DNA of 33,453 bases from Candidatus Eiseniibacteriota bacterium (GTDB lineage Bacteria; Eisenbacteria; RBG-16-71-46; JABDJR01; JAWXBZ01), in assembly GCA_034440375.1 (NCBI GenBank), contig JAWXBZ010000191.1, forward strand, positions 1 through 33,453. The letters are read 5' to 3'. The position numbers were made by a program, and so were the translations under genes. Under the pieces are notes generated by a model, which was not told where the DNA came from, did not search any database, and saw nothing but the letters and a program-made list of their open reading frames with translations. This document shows positions 959 to 33,311 of the stretch, piece by piece; within the stretch, counting starts at the first letter, position 1, and the number at the start of each line of letters is the position of its first letter.

Positions 959-1777
959 ATGCAAAGATTCAACAGGAATGCGCTGTGGCTGACAGCGCTG
1001 CTGCCGGCCCTGATGATGGCCGGATGCCAGAAGAATGCGGCCACCCTGGTCGGACCCTCCGACGCCGACCCGAGCCTGACCCAGCTGAGCCACAGGCCCC
1101 CGGCGCGTTCACCGGTCAACCTGGGAACCGCCGCCAATTACGTGATTCTGTCCAAGTCCGGCATCTCGACCACGGGAACGACCTCCATTGTCGGGAAAAT
1201 CGGAGTCAGTCCGATCGCCGCCACCGCCATCACCGGCTTCGGGCTGGTTTTGGATTCTTCGGGTTCCTTTTCGAATTCATCCCTGGTGACCGGCCGGGTC
1301 TATGCGGCCGACTATGCCGTACCGACCCCGGCCACGCTGACCCGGGCCGTCAGCAACATGGAGACGGCCTACACCGACGCTGCCGGACGGACGTTGCCCG
1401 ACTACACTGAGCTGGGTGCCGGAAATATCGGCGGGTTGACGCTGAGGCCGGGTCTGTACAAGTGGTCCAGCACCGTTACCATCCCCACGGATGTCACCCT
1501 TTCGGGCAGCCCGACCGACGTCTGGATCTTCCAGATCGCCCAAACCCTGGCGATCAGCTCCGGGAAGCAGATCATCCTGAGGGACGGTGCCAAGGCGAAG
1601 AATGTCTTCTGGCAGGTCGCCGGCCAGACCACTCTCGGCACGACCTCAAAATTCAAGGGAATCCTGCTGTGCAAGACGGCCATCGTGATCCAGAACGGTG
1701 CCACCCTGAACGGTCGGGCCCTGGCCCAGACCGCCGTCACTCTGGACGCTAATTCCATCACCGCACCAGCCTTTTAA
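959..1777 (+). CDS. Ice-binding protein (DUF3494 family), predicted lipoprotein
   Basis: Lipobox LMMAGC. DUF3494 motifs VNLGTAANYVILSKSGIS, AYTDAAGR, L.PGLYKW, VWIFQI, NVFWQVAG and GRALAQTAVTLD are present. Confidence 0.93.
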   Translation: MQRFNRNALWLTALLPALMMAGCQKNAATLVGPSDADPSLTQLSHRPPARSPVNLGTAANYVILSKSGISTTGTTSIVGKIGVSPIAATAITGFGLVLDSSGSFSNSSLVTGRVYAADYAVPTPATLTRAVSNMETAYTDAAGRTLPDYTELGAGNIGGLTLRPGLYKWSSTVTIPTDVTLSGSPTDVWIFQIAQTLAISSGKQIILRDGAKAKNVFWQVAGQTTLGTTSKFKGILLCKTAIVIQNGATLNGRALAQTAVTLDANSITAPAF

Positions 1778-1807
1778 GGCTTCGGCACCCGAGAATTGTT
1801 CTGACCC

Positions 1808-1843
1808 CGACCCCCGTGAGAGAAAGCTCCCGGGGGTCGTTTT
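1808..1843 (+). terminator. Rho-independent terminator
   Basis: CGACCCCCG...CGGGGGTCG stem followed by TTTT, 30 nt after the IBP stop. Confidence 0.7.
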
Positions 1844-1866
1844 GTGGGCGGCATGGGGTCTTGCTC

Positions 1867-2785
1867 CTATCGGAGGAGGATGCGCCTGATTTCGAACGCC
1901 AGCTTCAGCCCATCCAGGCTGCGGTTTTCCGGAAGCCGATCACCGAGTTGGTGCATGAAGTAGTCCGGGCGAGGTGAATCGTCGCCTTCCCATCTCACCC
2001 CGGGCAGATAGACGAGATACACGTCCCAGGCGGGCTCGGTCGTGAGATCAAGCGGAGATTGAAAGAGTTTCCCAACTTCCTGCGAGCCGGTCCAGTAGTT
2101 TCGAACGCGCCGGTCCGGGAAAAGGGTCGTCGCTTTCCTGGATGACCGCTCATCGTCCGTCTTGAGGATGGGTTCCCACACGGCGTAAACGGCAAGCTCA
2201 TTACTGTCGATGACTCCGAGCACATTTTCCTGCACCACACGGGCGCCGCGTTGACAGCCGGGTCAGGTGGGAGAAAGCAGCATCAGCAGTCGGGTCTTCT
2301 TCGCATCGGCGTTGAACCGCTCCTTCAGCTCCCTCCCGGTTGGCGAGAGCTGTTCCATGAGCGTTGAATCGTCGGCGGCGCTCTCGAGCTGGAGGAAGGT
2401 CGGAGAACCGGGCTTCTCCAATTCGCTGAAATTCGATTGGCAGGTTGTGATCCTGAAAAGCGACGACTCCAATCATGGATTCGCCCCTGAAAGTGCCGAC
2501 AAACTCCGCATTGGGGCCGGCGAAATGCAGGTAAACGGTCGAATCCCCCAGCGTCACCTTCACGGGATAGTTCTCGACCCCCCAGTCGAGGACATCGAAC
2601 TCGCCCGTAAGCCTGGAACCCGCAAGACCTAGATCGACGACCATCTGAACGGACGTACTATCCTCGAACAGGACGTCGGCAATCCACTCCCCCGCAATCG
2701 GAGGATGATCCGTCACGGCGCCAGCGGGGGACACTCCCGTTCCGATGAGGAGCAGGGGAAGCCAAAAACGCATGTCGATCTTCAT
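1867..2785 (-). CDS. Secreted thioredoxin-fold probable selenoprotein (UxxC), with an in-frame TGA at 2265-2263 and a frameshift near 2398
   Basis: ORFs 2263..2472 and 1867..2238 are in one frame, separated only by TGA: LLMLLSPT-TGA-PGCQRGARVVQENVL...VYAVWEP...AWDVYLVY...MHQL. The signal-peptide ORF from 2785 shifts frame at ...ARFSD/FLQLE. Confidence 0.7.
2229..2262 (-). promoter_or_regulatory. Candidate bacterial SECIS element
   Basis: After the UGA there are 11 nt, then stem ACGCGG/CCGUGU with loop CGC (G second, 17 nt from UGA) and a lower CUG/CAG pairing. This fits the bacterial SECIS consensus geometry. Confidence 0.55.
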
Positions 2786-3403
2786 CTAGTGGCGGATATC
2801 CACAACCACCCGCGGCGAACTCGACAGCGGGAACACCCGAAACTGGTTCGGCGAGCCAACGCCGAGCACCCACGAGACATCGGCTTCGAAGTCGCAGATC
2901 AGGCTCAACTGCTTCAGCACCGGCTGATTCACCACCCGCATCCGCTCCCCGACGGTCGGTTGACCTTCCTCCGTGTGCGCGGCCGCCGGGATGAACCGGA
3001 TGAGAATCCACGCGTCTCCCGCTATCTGGACCACCTCGCCCGAGCCGCACTGTCGAACGGGATGGTCGACGTACTCCGCATGCACGCCTGGAAGCCCGCC
3101 CGGACCAAACTGGAAGACGACGCGATCGTAATTGTCGTGCCGGGCATTCCTCACCGCCTCGAGGACGGGCATCTCTCCACCACTCGCCGGCAGATCGACG
3201 ATACCGATCGTCCAGGCAGCCGTCTCGGGGGTGTCCTCGGCGGGGTCGGGCCGCGGCACGACCGAGGTATCCCGCTCGACAACCGGCGGGCGCGGCCTCT
3301 GAGATTCGCGGGAGCGATCCTGCCCACCGCAGCCGACAAGCAATCCGGTCAGGAGGAAGGCCACCATTCGGACCATCTGAGTCTTGAACATGAAGCCGGG
3401 CAT
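2786..3403 (-). CDS. Lipoprotein with AMIN-like domain
   Basis: Strong SD GAGGAGG, lipobox LLVGC, Pro-rich linker, and motifs HDNYDRVVFQF, EYV, DFEA...W.LG and PRVVVDI. Its TAG abuts the ATG of the next gene (operon). Confidence 0.75.
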   Translation of the reverse strand: MPGFMFKTQMVRMVAFLLTGLLVGCGGQDRSRESQRPRPPVVERDTSVVPRPDPAEDTPETAAWTIGIVDLPASGGEMPVLEAVRNARHDNYDRVVFQFGPGGLPGVHAEYVDHPVRQCGSGEVVQIAGDAWILIRFIPAAAHTEEGQPTVGERMRVVNQPVLKQLSLICDFEADVSWVLGVGSPNQFRVFPLSSSPRVVVDIRH

Positions 3404-3602
3404 CCCTACCTCCTCATTACCGGTGAGATCGATCCTCCTGGAATCGCCATGGCACGGCGTGGATTATACCGGTAGGCTCTCACATGGCTCAGAACCCGCG
3501 CACGCGCCAGGAGCGGATTTTCTTTGCCCCCCGCACGATCCTGCTAAAATGATGGATTCCCATCGACATCAACAACTTGACATGCTCTTTCAGGGAGGAA
3601 TC

Positions 3603-4364
3603 ATGAGGCCGCGTTCGTCCAACTCGTTGCACTTCTCGAAACTGCTGCTTTCGACACTATTCAGCCTGGCCGTCTCATCACCTGTGGTGGCTCAGCCCGT
3701 CTCCAGCTTAATTTCGTCCAATTTCAACGGAACTGCGATACCGGCAGGCCGGACGGTCTGGTTCAACAGCGTCCTTGACTACTCGGGGCCCACGTCACAG
3801 CCGGTGACCATCTTCGTCCGGAATGCCACGGTCAGCTTCACGGCCAACAGCGTGAACTATGTCATCAATGTTCCCGATGCTGATATCACCCTGGGCCCGT
3901 CGGTGTCTCTTGCCACCACAAACTTCAATACGTCGACAGGCCGGTGGGAGACCACGGCCGATTTTGGCTCGAGCGGCAACACCTTCATGGCCGGGGTAGC
4001 CTTTCCCGCAATCGTGAATCTTCCCGGGGGAATCAACCCAGTGGTATGGAGTGCGGATTTCTCTTCGGACACACAGGGCGTCTGCCTCAACTGGAAATGG
4101 GCGGCTGCCGTGTACACGACTTTCAGTACCGACTACAGCGCCATCGGCGTCAAGCCGATTGATCCCAACACCGGAAGTCCCTACTTGAATTCCCATCATG
4201 CGGGAACGCCGGAGAACTTCACAAACTTCGTCACCGGTGGCGCCCGGGGCGGTGGTGGGTCGAATTTCACCGGTTCCTACAGCGGGACATCGAGCGCCTG
4301 TCCTGGTTTCGTTGTACCCGTTTTGCCGGTCACCTGGAGTGGGCTCAAGTCGCGTAGCTTCTGA
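3603..4364 (+). CDS. Secreted beta-rich protein with C-terminal TW-x3-K motif
   Basis: SD GGGAGGA before ATG 3603, signal peptide ending ...SPVVA-QP, C-terminus [26 protein letters not shown] at 3542-3550 is a possible extended -10. Confidence 0.8.
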
Positions 4365-4404: not shown

Positions 4405-4824
4405 GCCGGCCAGTCAGGCACTCGTAGAGCAGGCAGCCGAATGCCCAGATGTCGGTGCGCTTGTCGACCGGCTTTCCGCGTGCCTGCTCGGGGCTCATGT
4501 AGGCCGCGGTGCCGAGGATCATGCCGGCTCCGGTCACCGCGCGCGTGAGCGTTGGCGAGTTGGAGAGATCGAGCGCCGGATCCGAAACGACCCCGGCTCC
4601 CCCCTTGGCGAGGCCGAAATCAAGTACTTTGACCTCGCCCGCCGGGGTGACCTTGATGTTCGCCGGCTTCAGATCCCGGTGAACGACGCCGCCTTCGTGG
4701 GCCGCTTCGAGCGCCGCGGTTACCTGCGGTCCAGTCGCGTGTCGCGCCCGAGGTAGACCATGCCCATCCCGCCGCGGCCAAGTTCGCGCTCGATCGGGTA
4801 GGCGCCGATCCGTTCCGGTGTCAT
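4405..4824 (-). pseudogene. Ser/Thr protein kinase remnant, paralog of 14803..17469
   Basis: [21 protein letters not shown]...DTRLDRR joins out of frame at about 4725 to [20 protein letters not shown]...DFG...YMSPEQARG...CLTGR. About 240 bp (including VAIK) and everything after subdomain IX are missing. Confidence 0.88.
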
Positions 4825-14802: not shown

Positions 14803-17469
<2,667 letters not shown>

Positions 17470-17911
17470 GCAAGCTCCGCGATGAAGTCCAACACCAATG
17501 TCGGCATGCGATCTCTCCCTGGTTTTGATCGGGCCCCGGCCGCGCCCGGACGGTCGCACGATACATGAGGCCCCGGCCGTGGGGAAAGGCTCCACGAAAG
17601 CTTCTGGCGTCTACGCGGTGAAACAGCGTCGCCCACCGGGGGCTGTTGTAGTTGGAGGTTTCACAAGGCTATTTTCGGTAGCCGTCCTCGTTGCTGGCGA
17701 TGGCGTCTTTGTGCCAATTGTCGAGGAAGTCCAGCGGCGAGGAGTGATGGTCGTAGTGGCAGAACTTGGCCGACTCCTGGATCCGGAGTTGACCCGGTTT
17801 CCATGAGGACATGCTACAAATCCACCGCGCCTGACCGCTTTCCAGAAGACTCCATTCGTCATTCCTCCCGCCGTTCGCCAGTCCCTCAGTAACTCTCCCT
17901 CCGGGTTAGCG

Positions 17912-31379: not shown

Positions 31380-32467
31380 CGCAGGGTCAAAGTATTCGGC
31401 CGAGTCGCAATTGTCGAACGTACTTCACCTTGCGACGTTGCTCTGCGCCCATGGCTCGCCCGATTGAGGGACATCCATTCCTCCCCGATGCTCCCCGGCT
31501 TTTGCCAAGGACCACTGGGAGCATCCATGCGCACCGTCCTCCAACCGTGGCACATCTTTGTCGTCATCCTCGCCGGTTGGGTCAATCGCCGGCAGCACGA
31601 CGCCATCGACTACCTGCGAACCGAGAACCAGGTCTTGAGGGAGGCGTGTGGCAAGAAGCGGATTCCCCTGACCGATTCCCAGCGCCGTCGCTTGGCGATC
31701 AAGGGGAAGCTCCGGCCACCGGTCTCCCAGGAAGTCATCGACCTTGTTCTCCGACTCGCCCGTGAGAATCGAAGCTGGGGCTTTGACACGGCCAGTCCGA
31801 ATTTCGCATGGATAAAGCAGATCGCCAGAAATCTGACCGACTGCACCGACGGATTTCTCCTGGGATCCCACTTCGTTCTGATGGATCGCGACACGAAGTT
31901 CTGTGAGGAGTTTCGCTCGCTTCTCAGGGATGCCGGAATCACTCCCGTCATACTTCCCGCCCGATCGCCAAATCTCAATGCGCTTGTCGAGCGATTCATG
32001 AGGTCGCTGAAATCCGAGTGCCTCAACCGGATGATCTTCTTCGGCGCGAACTTATTGCGGGGTGCCGTCCGCGAGTACCTCGCCCATTATCACCGGGAGA
32101 GGAATCATCAGGGGCTTGGCAATCGGCTGATCGAGCCGGACGTCAGGGTCGGAGAGGATGCTGGCGACATTCAGTGCCGCGAGCGGATCGGCGGGCTCCT
32201 GAAGTACTACTACCGGGACGCAGCGTAAGGTCGATTCGTCGGCGCAGTTGATTCAAACAGCTGGCCCCTTCCCCATCTCTCCGGGGACGGGCCTGATAGG
32301 CCATGTCGTGATGCGACTCTCGGGCCAGGTTCACCCGAATCCATCCCGCCTTCCCCCCAAACGACGCCCAATATCTCGGCCCGATTTCGGCAGTCGTGCT
32401 TCACGCCGAGCGCCGAGGACTGGGGAATGGCGCCATTTCTGGCGCAGCCTAATATTTTGACCCTACG
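31380..32467 (+). mobile_element. Degenerate IS element with integrase-core (rve-type) transposase and terminal inverted repeats
   Basis: Left end CGCAGGGTCAAAGTATTCGGCCG is an inverted match to right end ...CAGCCTAATATTTTGACCCTACG and the pair encloses the transposase. No target duplication is visible. Confidence 0.8.
31527..32228 (+). pseudogene. Integrase-core DDE transposase with two apparent in-frame internal deletions
   Basis: LAGWVNR.Q...IDYL..EN.VL, ARENRSWG, DRDTKF, RSPNLNA..ERF.RSLK.ECL, YH.ERNHQGL.N and ER.GGLLKYY are present. The segments I expect between KGK and RP and between WG and the W..QIARN motif (including the first catalytic Asp, DFF) are absent. Confidence 0.8.
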
Positions 32468-32531: not shown

Positions 32532-33311
32532 TCAGCCCTGACACCCCGGACACCAATAGCTAGACCGCCCCCCCAACCCCTGCCGGCGCATCTCCACGAG
32601 CGTGCCGCACCGGCGGCAGGGAGCGCCGCTGCGACGGTAGACCCAGTAGCGGGCACCGTCGAGAGACTGGCGCGTGGTGCGCGTGCTCGTTTCGAGATTG
32701 GAGCGCATGAGGCGGCGGGCGGTCTGCACGAGGTCGCGCAGCGTGTCGTCGGGCAGGTCGCGCACGAGGCGAAACGGTGAAATGCCGCACAGAAAGAGCG
32801 TCTCGGACTTGTAGATGTTACCGATGCCGGAGATGATCCGCTGGGCCAGCAACGCCTCCCCGACCGGCATATCTCCCCGGTCCCGGAGGCGCTCGATGGC
32901 GGCGGTCTCATCGAACGTCTCCGCTACGATGTCGGGGCCGAGAGCCGTCAGCCTTTCGCTGCGACCGGCGCCTCGCGTCAGCAGCTCGATTTCCGGAGCG
33001 TTGAAGCAGGGCAGGACCCAGCCGTCGACTTCGAGCACGAGTCGGGCGAGCCGTTCCGGCTTTCCCCACTCCTCCCCCGGCCGGTAGACGTGCCAGGAGC
33101 CGGTCATCCGCATGTGAGTGCGGAGCGCGCGCCCGTCGTCGAAGCGAATGATGAGATGCTTGCCCAGCGCCTCGACGGCGTCGACCGCGTGGCCGACCAG
33201 GGATTCGGCATCGAGGCCGGGTACGAGCGTACGGGCGGACGTTATGACCTTGCCGGAGAGCACCCGCTGCAGCGTGGCCGCGACGCGATGGATGGTATCG
33301 CCTTCAGGCAT
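32532..33311 (-). CDS. nei: Fpg/Nei family DNA glycosylase/AP lyase
   Basis: N-terminal MPEG, GKHL, HMRMTGSW, H2TH GIGNIYKSE, zinc finger CRRC...CPGCQ. Confidence 0.92.
   Translation of the reverse strand: MPEGDTIHRVAATLQRVLSGKVITSARTLVPGLDAESLVGHAVDAVEALGKHLIIRFDDGRALRTHMRMTGSWHVYRPGEEWGKPERLARLVLEVDGWVLPCFNAPEIELLTRGAGRSERLTALGPDIVAETFDETAAIERLRDRGDMPVGEALLAQRIISGIGNIYKSETLFLCGISPFRLVRDLPDDTLRDLVQTARRLMRSNLETSTRTTRQSLDGARYWVYRRSGAPCRRCGTLVEMRRQGLGGRSSYWCPGCQG

Follow-up and report, generated by a model that had tools for sequence, protein, structure and literature searches.

An in-frame TGA as a candidate selenocysteine codon in an uncurated family of thioredoxin-fold proteins from Eisenbacteria and other phyla

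The stretch of DNA analysed here comes from Candidatus Eiseniibacteriota bacterium (assembly GCA_034440375.1, contig JAWXBZ010000191.1, positions 1-33,453; hereafter the window, from a genome with a G+C content of 63%), and it carries on its minus strand a gene that appears to encode a selenoprotein. Gene calling yields two separate open reading frames (ORFs) at this locus, one at 2263-2472 (69 amino acids (aa), ending in LLMLLSPT) and a second one of 123 aa that starts with GTG (Table 1). Read on the minus strand from 2472 to 1867, the two form one continuous frame of 202 codons with 63% identity to the homologous protein P0003. The sole stop in this frame, and its only lesion, is the TGA at 2265-2263, codon 70 of the frame, which lies in the context FNADAKKTRLLMLLSPT-[TGA]-PGCQRGARVVQENV. 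The motif RLLMLLSPT-TGA-PGC, from which a selenoprotein had originally been predicted here, is confirmed on the minus strand of the window. That original prediction spoke of one frame broken only by TGA, a description that holds for 1867-2472 and fails for the complete gene, the N-terminal part of which (2785-2396) lies in another frame. As detailed below, the TGA at 2265-2263 is very probably a selenocysteine (Sec, U) codon, placed at the nucleophilic first position of a UxxC motif in an extracytoplasmic thioredoxin-fold domain that belongs to a large uncurated family; for the family as a whole, Sec decoding is, if anything, slightly more probable still.

Table 1. Features of the candidate selenoprotein locus and of the gene upstream of it, in window coordinates (SECIS, selenocysteine insertion sequence).
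Feature	Position	Strand	Basis or detail
Linker and thioredoxin-fold domain frame, 177 residues, candidate Sec at residue 46	1867..2400	-	Stop TAG 1869-1867
123-aa called ORF, GTG start within helix alpha-1; truncation artefact	1867..2238	-	Database entry P0002 is the same ORF
SECIS-like hairpin	2233..2256	-	Inner stem 2251-2246/2242-2237, loop CGC 2245-2243
UGU codon, resolving Cys of UxxC	2254..2256	-	C49 invariant in the family alignment
In-frame UGA, candidate Sec codon, first position of U-P-G-C	2263..2265	-	Sec/Cys column comparison
N-terminal part: predicted signal peptide (~2785-2715, MKIDMRFWLPLLLIGTGVSPAGA) and eight-stranded beta-barrel domain	2396..2785	-	Two-frame tblastn, AlphaFold2
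Frame break, GACC where relatives encode D/E-T	2398..2401	-	Relatives read FSDTFLKLE / FSETFLALE
AMIN-like lipoprotein gene, lipobox LLVGC	2786..3403	-	PF24837, E 9.1e-31

The evidence that carries this reading is the comparison of the column occupied by the TGA, which we followed both in DNA and in protein sequences. At the DNA level we compared seven loci from one scan of representative genomes: L001 and L004 from Eisenbacteria metagenome-assembled genomes (MAGs), L002, L003 and L006 from Acidobacteriota, L007 from Solibacteraceae and L005 from a Planctomycetaceae MAG. The column holds TGA in four of the seven (L001, L004, L006 and L007) and the Cys codon TGC in the other three (L002, L003 and L005). 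At the protein level two sets were used, namely the best 120 database matches to the read-through protein and 49 longer homologues retrieved with the Cys-form P0003, plus P0004. Every full-length homologue that spans the column has Cys there, as part of an invariant SPTC..C (48 of 48; the count includes P0004 and leaves out P0168, which is without the column region). Cys or TGA at this position in homologues is the outcome that the original prediction had named as its support, and both the loci and the full-length proteins show it.

The best 120 matches tell the same story from the side of annotation. Only two of them, P0003 and P0004, are full-length Cys forms, and 116 are truncated ORFs that start 2-23 residues past the column, just as the original prediction had foreseen in supposing that gene callers would miss the protein; the first residue among all 120 is M in 75 and V in 43. 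A search with the upstream ORF retrieved five further relatives (P0314-P0318), all five of which terminate precisely at ...LLSPT. Identity to the window amounts to 40-57% over the 30 residues before the TGA and to 33-52% after it. The Sec/Cys pattern is far beyond chance.

One could still take the TGA for an ordinary nonsense mutation or for a genuine stop codon, with either the 123-aa ORF or both ORFs expressed and no Sec involved, given that the 123-aa ORF is called in the window and in relatives and that the hairpin described below is without significant stability. We regard this as highly improbable, since four of the seven loci, which come from different phyla, share a stop at this column, as in effect do 116 of the 120 best relatives, since the sequence is conserved equally well before and after it, and since the column is Cys in all 48 full-length forms. 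Furthermore, the 123-aa ORF, which starts in helix alpha-1, is missing both the active site and strand beta-1 of a fold that is modelled with high confidence (predicted local distance difference test, pLDDT, 94). On this last ground the 123-aa ORF was rejected as a genuine stand-alone gene.

Alternatively, UGA might be read as Trp, Cys or Gly, either through a reassigned code or by near-cognate read-through, and one fragment among the best 120 matches, P0099, does have W at the column (R-W-PGC). Of the 15 ORFs in the window that have Pfam support, six terminate in TGA, five in TAG and four in TAA; we conclude that TGA is not reassigned, and a recoded genetic code was rejected on the strength of TGA being a frequent stop here. 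Elsewhere the column holds nothing but Cys or TGA, and the lone W may reflect translation under another table; insertion of a standard amino acid is therefore scarcely credible to us. Against a Sec codon stand nonetheless the W of P0099 itself and protein P0013, in which a five-residue replacement gives SPAAHGRPGC for SPT-U-PGC; by the sequences available, these two are the only results contrary to a strict Cys/Sec column. It also counts against a Sec codon that neither selA, selB and selD nor a tRNA-Sec is found within the 33-kb window, in which ARAGORN reports no tRNA and no tRNA-Sec.

Bacterial SECIS elements follow a published consensus, given in a figure legend as an apical loop of 3-9 nucleotides (nt), an upper stem of 4-16 base pairs (bp), a spacing of 16-37 nt, a G in the first two loop positions and a minimum free energy of at most -7.5 kcal/mol (PMC13188914, Fig. 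2 legend). The original prediction had described a hairpin with its loop 17 nt from the UGA and a G at the second loop position, and we find it exactly so: ACGCGG-cgc-CCGUGU occupies 2251-2237 of the minus strand, its stem beginning 11 nt and its loop 17 nt downstream of the UGA, and the second of the three loop bases is G. Beyond the inner stem, A2252 is bulged and an outer stem of three or four pairs joins 2256-2253 to 2236-2233. We compared five Sec-type DNA sequences (the window, L001, L004, L006 and L007) with three Cys forms. A 3-nt loop that has G in its first two bases, lies 17-18 nt after the codon and is closed by at least three pairs is present in all five Sec forms and in none of the three Cys forms, and the same loop geometry occurs at 6.4% of 3000 random window positions. 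The stem at the matching position measures 6 bp in the window, 3 bp in L001, 4 bp in L004, 7 bp in L006 and 8 bp in L007. When a hand-drawn 10-pair structure is laid over the alignment of the five Sec sequences, 78% of the cells pair, compared with 36-58% when the partner is slid, and three of the pairs vary on both sides.

Several results weigh on the other side. When columns are shuffled to control for the pair count, the observed pairing is attained in 68 of 500 cases, and covariation across the five sequences is weak. The 86-nt fold is no stabler than its shuffles (z = +1.23), and comparison with 500 synonymous recodings yields z = +0.35 for the 45 nt after the window UGA, with values from -1.1 to +0.9 across all five Sec sequences. 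In a strict test that allows no bulge and sets a limit of -7.5 kcal/mol, L001, L006 and L007 pass (background rate 8%); the window, with its 6-bp stem, and L004 fall short. The hairpin comparison, moreover, rests on five Sec-type DNA sequences, and coding constraint confounds it because the stem overlaps the conserved G-A-R-V codons. Since the thermodynamic tests are without signal, we do not count stability as evidence. Scanned against Rfam, neither the window nor any of the four Sec loci gave a match; we know of no general bacterial SECIS model in Rfam. Taken together, the positional conservation of the hairpin and its compatibility with the published consensus are suggestive and make it a candidate SECIS, not a proven one.

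The frame downstream of position 2400 encodes a compact domain. The AlphaFold2 model of the 2400-1867 product, computed with 47 aligned sequences as input, has a pLDDT of 94.2, a predicted template modelling score (pTM) of 0.90 and the topology of a thioredoxin fold. Strand E36-42 leads to U/C at residue 46, followed by helix H47-61, which is the CxxC position of the thioredoxin fold, so that the placement of the TGA at the first Cys of a CxxC-type motif after a beta-strand, as originally proposed, is reproduced in the model. A Foldseek search of the PDB gives 16 matches at E <= 1e-3, with sequence identities of 8-17% and target-normalised template modelling (TM) scores of about 0.5-0.6. The leading matches are DsbF (3ios, E 2.4e-5), DsbE (1lu4), CcmG (1kng) and ResA (2f9s, 1st9); human GPX8 (3cyn) and ScoI (4wbj) are among the 16 as well. 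The predicted structure and these matches, which agree with the redoxin-like, thioredoxin-fold assignment of the original prediction, support a TlpA/ResA/CcmG/Sco-like thioredoxin fold for the modelled domain.

Sequence models do not recognise the domain. The Pfam scan of the window protein returned no family at E <= 1, including Redoxin (PF08534), AhpC-TSA (PF00578) and Thioredoxin_8, and the window protein, like P0003 and P0004, remains without a match among the models of Pfam and NCBIfam (best NCBIfam E 0.03-0.17, far below the cut-offs). Among 144 family representatives scanned, none has a thioredoxin-type Pfam match at E <= 1e-4, and a profile search of PDB sequences gave nothing significant (best E 0.0039). 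The family itself is large: its profile retrieves 398 representative clusters at E <= 1e-30, a number that rises to 1641 at E <= 1e-10 and to 2665 at E <= 1e-3. Members have the signature F-N-x-D ... R-L-x-x-L-S-P-T-[U/C]-x-x-C, and the invariant set of the family alignment comprises FN.D, SPT[C/U]..C, VWEP, AWDV and MHQL, with H150 nearly invariant. To judge from its position in the sequence, the invariant P-A-W-D-V stretch before strand E127-131 may serve as the cis-Pro loop. In the ESM Atlas the domain adjoins clusters that are auto-named 'Thioredoxin family protein' and have no common Pfam. Two variations were observed among the Cys forms. Three proteins of 571-708 aa (P0169, P0170 and P0171) contain three tandem copies of the SPTCxxC domain, to which P0169 adds an HMA domain. 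The Acidobacteriota Cys form in the 3430 region of L002 reads SPTCGC and has CxC, not CxxC, being one residue shorter; an identical protein, P0222, is in the representative set.

Upstream of the thioredoxin-fold domain, many family members of about 300 aa have in common the N-terminal domain that is listed for the window in Table 1. Its AlphaFold2 model (pLDDT 90) has eight strands, and Foldseek finds weak matches to barrels of the fatty acid-binding protein (FABP)/lipocalin type, the best with E 9.6e-4. The putative signal peptide preceding it was assigned by eye. In the window, tblastn of P0003 (296 aa) aligns in two frames, with residues 11-113 at 2698-2396 and residues 105-287 at 2445-1876. 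At the junction the window encodes FSD, which extends to 2399, and continues with TFLQLE from 2400 in the adjacent frame. GACC stands here for the expected GAC-ACC, and a two-base loss at 2398-2401 follows from this. P0003, P0314-P0318 and L001-L003 all run through the same site in one frame.

This break bears directly on whether the window copy works, and it weighs against a functional selenoprotein at this locus: as sequenced, the export signal and the barrel are out of frame with the Sec domain. The claim of the original prediction that the protein is exported accordingly stands for the family, in which signal peptides, a lipobox (in P0004) and MerT anchors occur, and does not stand for the window copy. 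It is a serious possibility, to which we give somewhat less than an even chance, that the gene is dead, i.e. that it descends from a genuine selenoprotein gene, has really lost 2 nt at 2398-2401 and yields no exported selenoprotein but at most a barrel with a nonsense tail. The frame break itself is established by the two-frame tblastn and the one-frame relatives, and the frameshifted ORF is recorded as database entry P0313, with two members in two contigs. Elsewhere in the window, long ORFs of 561-958 aa are undamaged, so that indel errors seem uncommon and a generally error-prone assembly is unlikely; the frameshift is therefore not dismissed as assembly noise, and the copy may be dead. An apparently decayed kinase paralogue lies 2 kb away. 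On the other side, the assembly itself could have slipped by 2 nt in GACACC, and the 202 codons from 2472 to 1867, with the identity to P0003 given above, are without any lesion besides the TGA, from which it follows that any inactivation would be recent. The window copy is thus either recently inactivated or carrying an assembly error.

The two frames differ by +1, and the site holds CUU and CCU, codons that are probably rare in a genome of this G+C content. One could therefore imagine double recoding, in which a programmed +1 frameshift near GAC-CUU-CCU (2401-2393) joins the N-terminal part and UGA is then decoded as Sec on the same mRNA. This strikes us as far-fetched. The relatives listed above use a single frame, the site has neither a stop nor a known slippery heptamer, and no stimulator resembling a Shine-Dalgarno sequence is apparent by eye in its vicinity.

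The AMIN-like lipoprotein gene that the original prediction had named as a neighbour is indeed present directly upstream (Table 1). Its stop TAG (2788-2786) directly abuts the ATG at 2785, which makes co-transcription plausible. AMIN-like adjacency is seen at none of the seven loci among ORFs of at least 130 aa, and a scan of 1700-3700 for promoters and terminators found nothing on the minus strand for a selenoprotein operon. Convergent with the selenoprotein gene, 959-1777 (plus strand) encodes an ice-binding-like protein (PF11999, E 3e-79), the N-terminus of which is of the lipoprotein type (LMMAGC). The ends of the two genes are separated by a GC-rich inverted repeat at about 1806-1835. Divergent from the AMIN-like gene is a 326-aa ORF (3384-4364, plus strand) with no Pfam match; a promoter-like site at 3577-3604 falls within its 5' part, and its true start is probably further downstream.

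Elsewhere in the window, 4406-4824 (minus strand) is a fragment of a Ser/Thr kinase gene and shares 88-90% identity with the kinase encoded at 14803-17595. Its residues 43-74 lie in another frame than residues 156-262, and about 80 residues between them are missing, giving it the appearance of a decayed paralogue. In the segment 21931-26072 (plus strand), a KaiC gene (584 aa; PF06745 at E 7e-111) precedes genes for a protein with a KaiB domain and for a hybrid kinase of PAS-HisKA-HATPase-receiver architecture, which together look like a clock-like KaiBC signalling cluster in an apparently non-cyanobacterial genome. Near the end of the window, an integrase/transposase-type ORF (31464-32228, plus strand; rve_3, DDE_3) adjoins a gene for the Fpg DNA glycosylase (32532-33311).

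Relatives of the window protein point to metals. MerT and HMA domains are encoded in the same ORF as the thioredoxin-fold domain in L001 and L004, and at L005:1069-3507, in the Planctomycetaceae MAG, a divergent merR and a gene for a 490-aa zf_CopZ+MerT+HMA protein lie directly upstream of the Cys form, making up a mer-like unit. By precomputed Pfam annotation, MerT and/or HMA are found in 8 of the 49 longer homologues; HMA and/or MerT occur in 14 of the 144 representatives, five of which have MerT. The nearest relatives of the N-terminal domain include P0314 with MerT and P0316 with HMA, and P0315 starts with what appears to be the last MerT helix. The C-terminus of MerT faces the periplasm, and domains fused behind it would therefore be periplasmic, in agreement with the signal peptides of other members and with the lipobox of P0004. 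A point against a metal function at the present locus is that there are no mer genes in the window, for which reason the metal role rests on the relatives. A tblastn search of the PLSDB plasmids gave no match and hence no annotated mer operon as context.

In relatives, the full protein consists of a signal peptide or a MerT-type membrane anchor, often an HMA domain, the eight-stranded beta-barrel, a linker and the TlpA/ResA/Sco-like domain. For decoding of the UGA in the window, SelB with Sec-tRNA(Sec) would be recruited by the hairpin at 2256-2233, the 3-nt loop of which lies 17 nt after the UGA, and translation past the UGA would then continue for 132 further codons to the TAG at 1869-1867. 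Judging from the fold and the fusions, the selenol/thiol pair would act outside the cytoplasm. There it might serve as a reductase for a MerP/MerT-type relay, the cysteine pairs of which it would keep in the reduced state, or it might be a soft-metal (Hg/Cu-type) exchange site that binds metal and passes it on within a MerP/MerT-like cysteine relay. Going one step further, the SPT-U-x-x-C domain could be a dedicated periplasmic module for the capture and hand-off of Hg(II)/Cu(I)-type ions in MerP/MerT-like uptake relays, and not a general disulfide reductase, with Sec replacing Cys as metal ligand in most close relatives; we offer this only tentatively, and consider it more doubtful than probable.

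How does the family relate to known systems? With TlpA/ResA/CcmG proteins (DsbE, DsbF) it shares export or membrane anchoring, the C/UxxC at the N-terminus of helix alpha-1 and the best structural matches (3ios, DsbF, at a target-normalised TM of 0.59, then 1lu4, 1kng and 2f9s). It differs from them in its low sequence identity (8-17%), in the lack of any Redoxin, AhpC-TSA or thioredoxin Pfam match and in having its own invariant set. The Sco chaperones (ScoI, Sco1/Sco2) likewise have a thioredoxin-like fold (Foldseek 4wbj, E 9e-4; 2rli; 1wp0), are extracytoplasmic, have a link to metals and combine a Cys pair with a distal conserved His, to which H150 would correspond by sequence alone. However, the Sco motif is CxxxC, whereas the spacing in the present family is CxxC, and the TM scores are lower (0.39-0.47).

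UxxC selenoproteins with a thioredoxin fold are a well-known kind, and the mechanism is in this respect unsurprising. Table 1 passages of two reviews catalogue Trx, Grx, a Prx-like thiol:disulfide oxidoreductase, DsbA-like and DsbG-like proteins, a Thioredoxin_8-type isomerase-like family, the Redoxin family PF08534, SaoT and a HUIPC-motif family (PMC9312934, PMC13188914). Our family resembles these in using Sec for the first Cys of CxxC, in having Cys-form homologues and in being represented by truncated database proteins (PMC9312934, PMC13188914). Nearly every family in those passages carries a Pfam, NCBIfam, TIGRFAM or CDD identifier (PMC9312934, PMC13188914). In contrast, neither the window protein nor P0003 or P0004 is recognised by a model from Pfam or NCBIfam, and it is by these two collections that our family is set apart from the catalogued ones.

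Selenoproteins of the MerT family, together with SaoT, a different thioredoxin-like family of about 85 residues, are mentioned in the Haft preprint (bioRxiv 10.1101/2022.07.06.499078). MerT and metal-binding-domain selenoproteins share with our family the tie between Sec and soft-metal handling of the MerT/HMA type (PMC13188914; bioRxiv 10.1101/2022.07.06.499078). The Sec of those selenoproteins is part of the MerT or metal-binding domain as such, whereas here it resides in a separate thioredoxin-fold domain, which is either C-terminal to MerT/HMA or stands alone behind a signal peptide. Our literature search turned up no selenoprotein that combines MerT, HMA and a thioredoxin fold; the family was not found in the selenoprotein table passages of the 2022 and 2026 reviews (PMC9312934, PMC13188914), and the terms sought for it are absent from the text of the BSepDB paper. 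Provisionally, we therefore treat the family as uncatalogued.

The Sec forms of this family are systematically mis-annotated as 118-134-aa 'hypothetical proteins' accompanied by an upstream fragment. Once the family is recognised, many annotations could be put right in MAGs of Eisenbacteria, Acidobacteriota and related groups, and a marker of the Sec trait would be gained for these phyla. The frameshift in the window serves as a reminder that a correct Sec call alone does not imply a working gene. Finally, the recurrent fusion to MerT and HMA is a testable lead on selenium in periplasmic heavy-metal handling; were the reading as a dedicated metal module true, the family would connect selenium with the handling of mercury in a widespread and so far unannotated way, in phyla of soils and sediments such as Eisenbacteria and Acidobacteriota.

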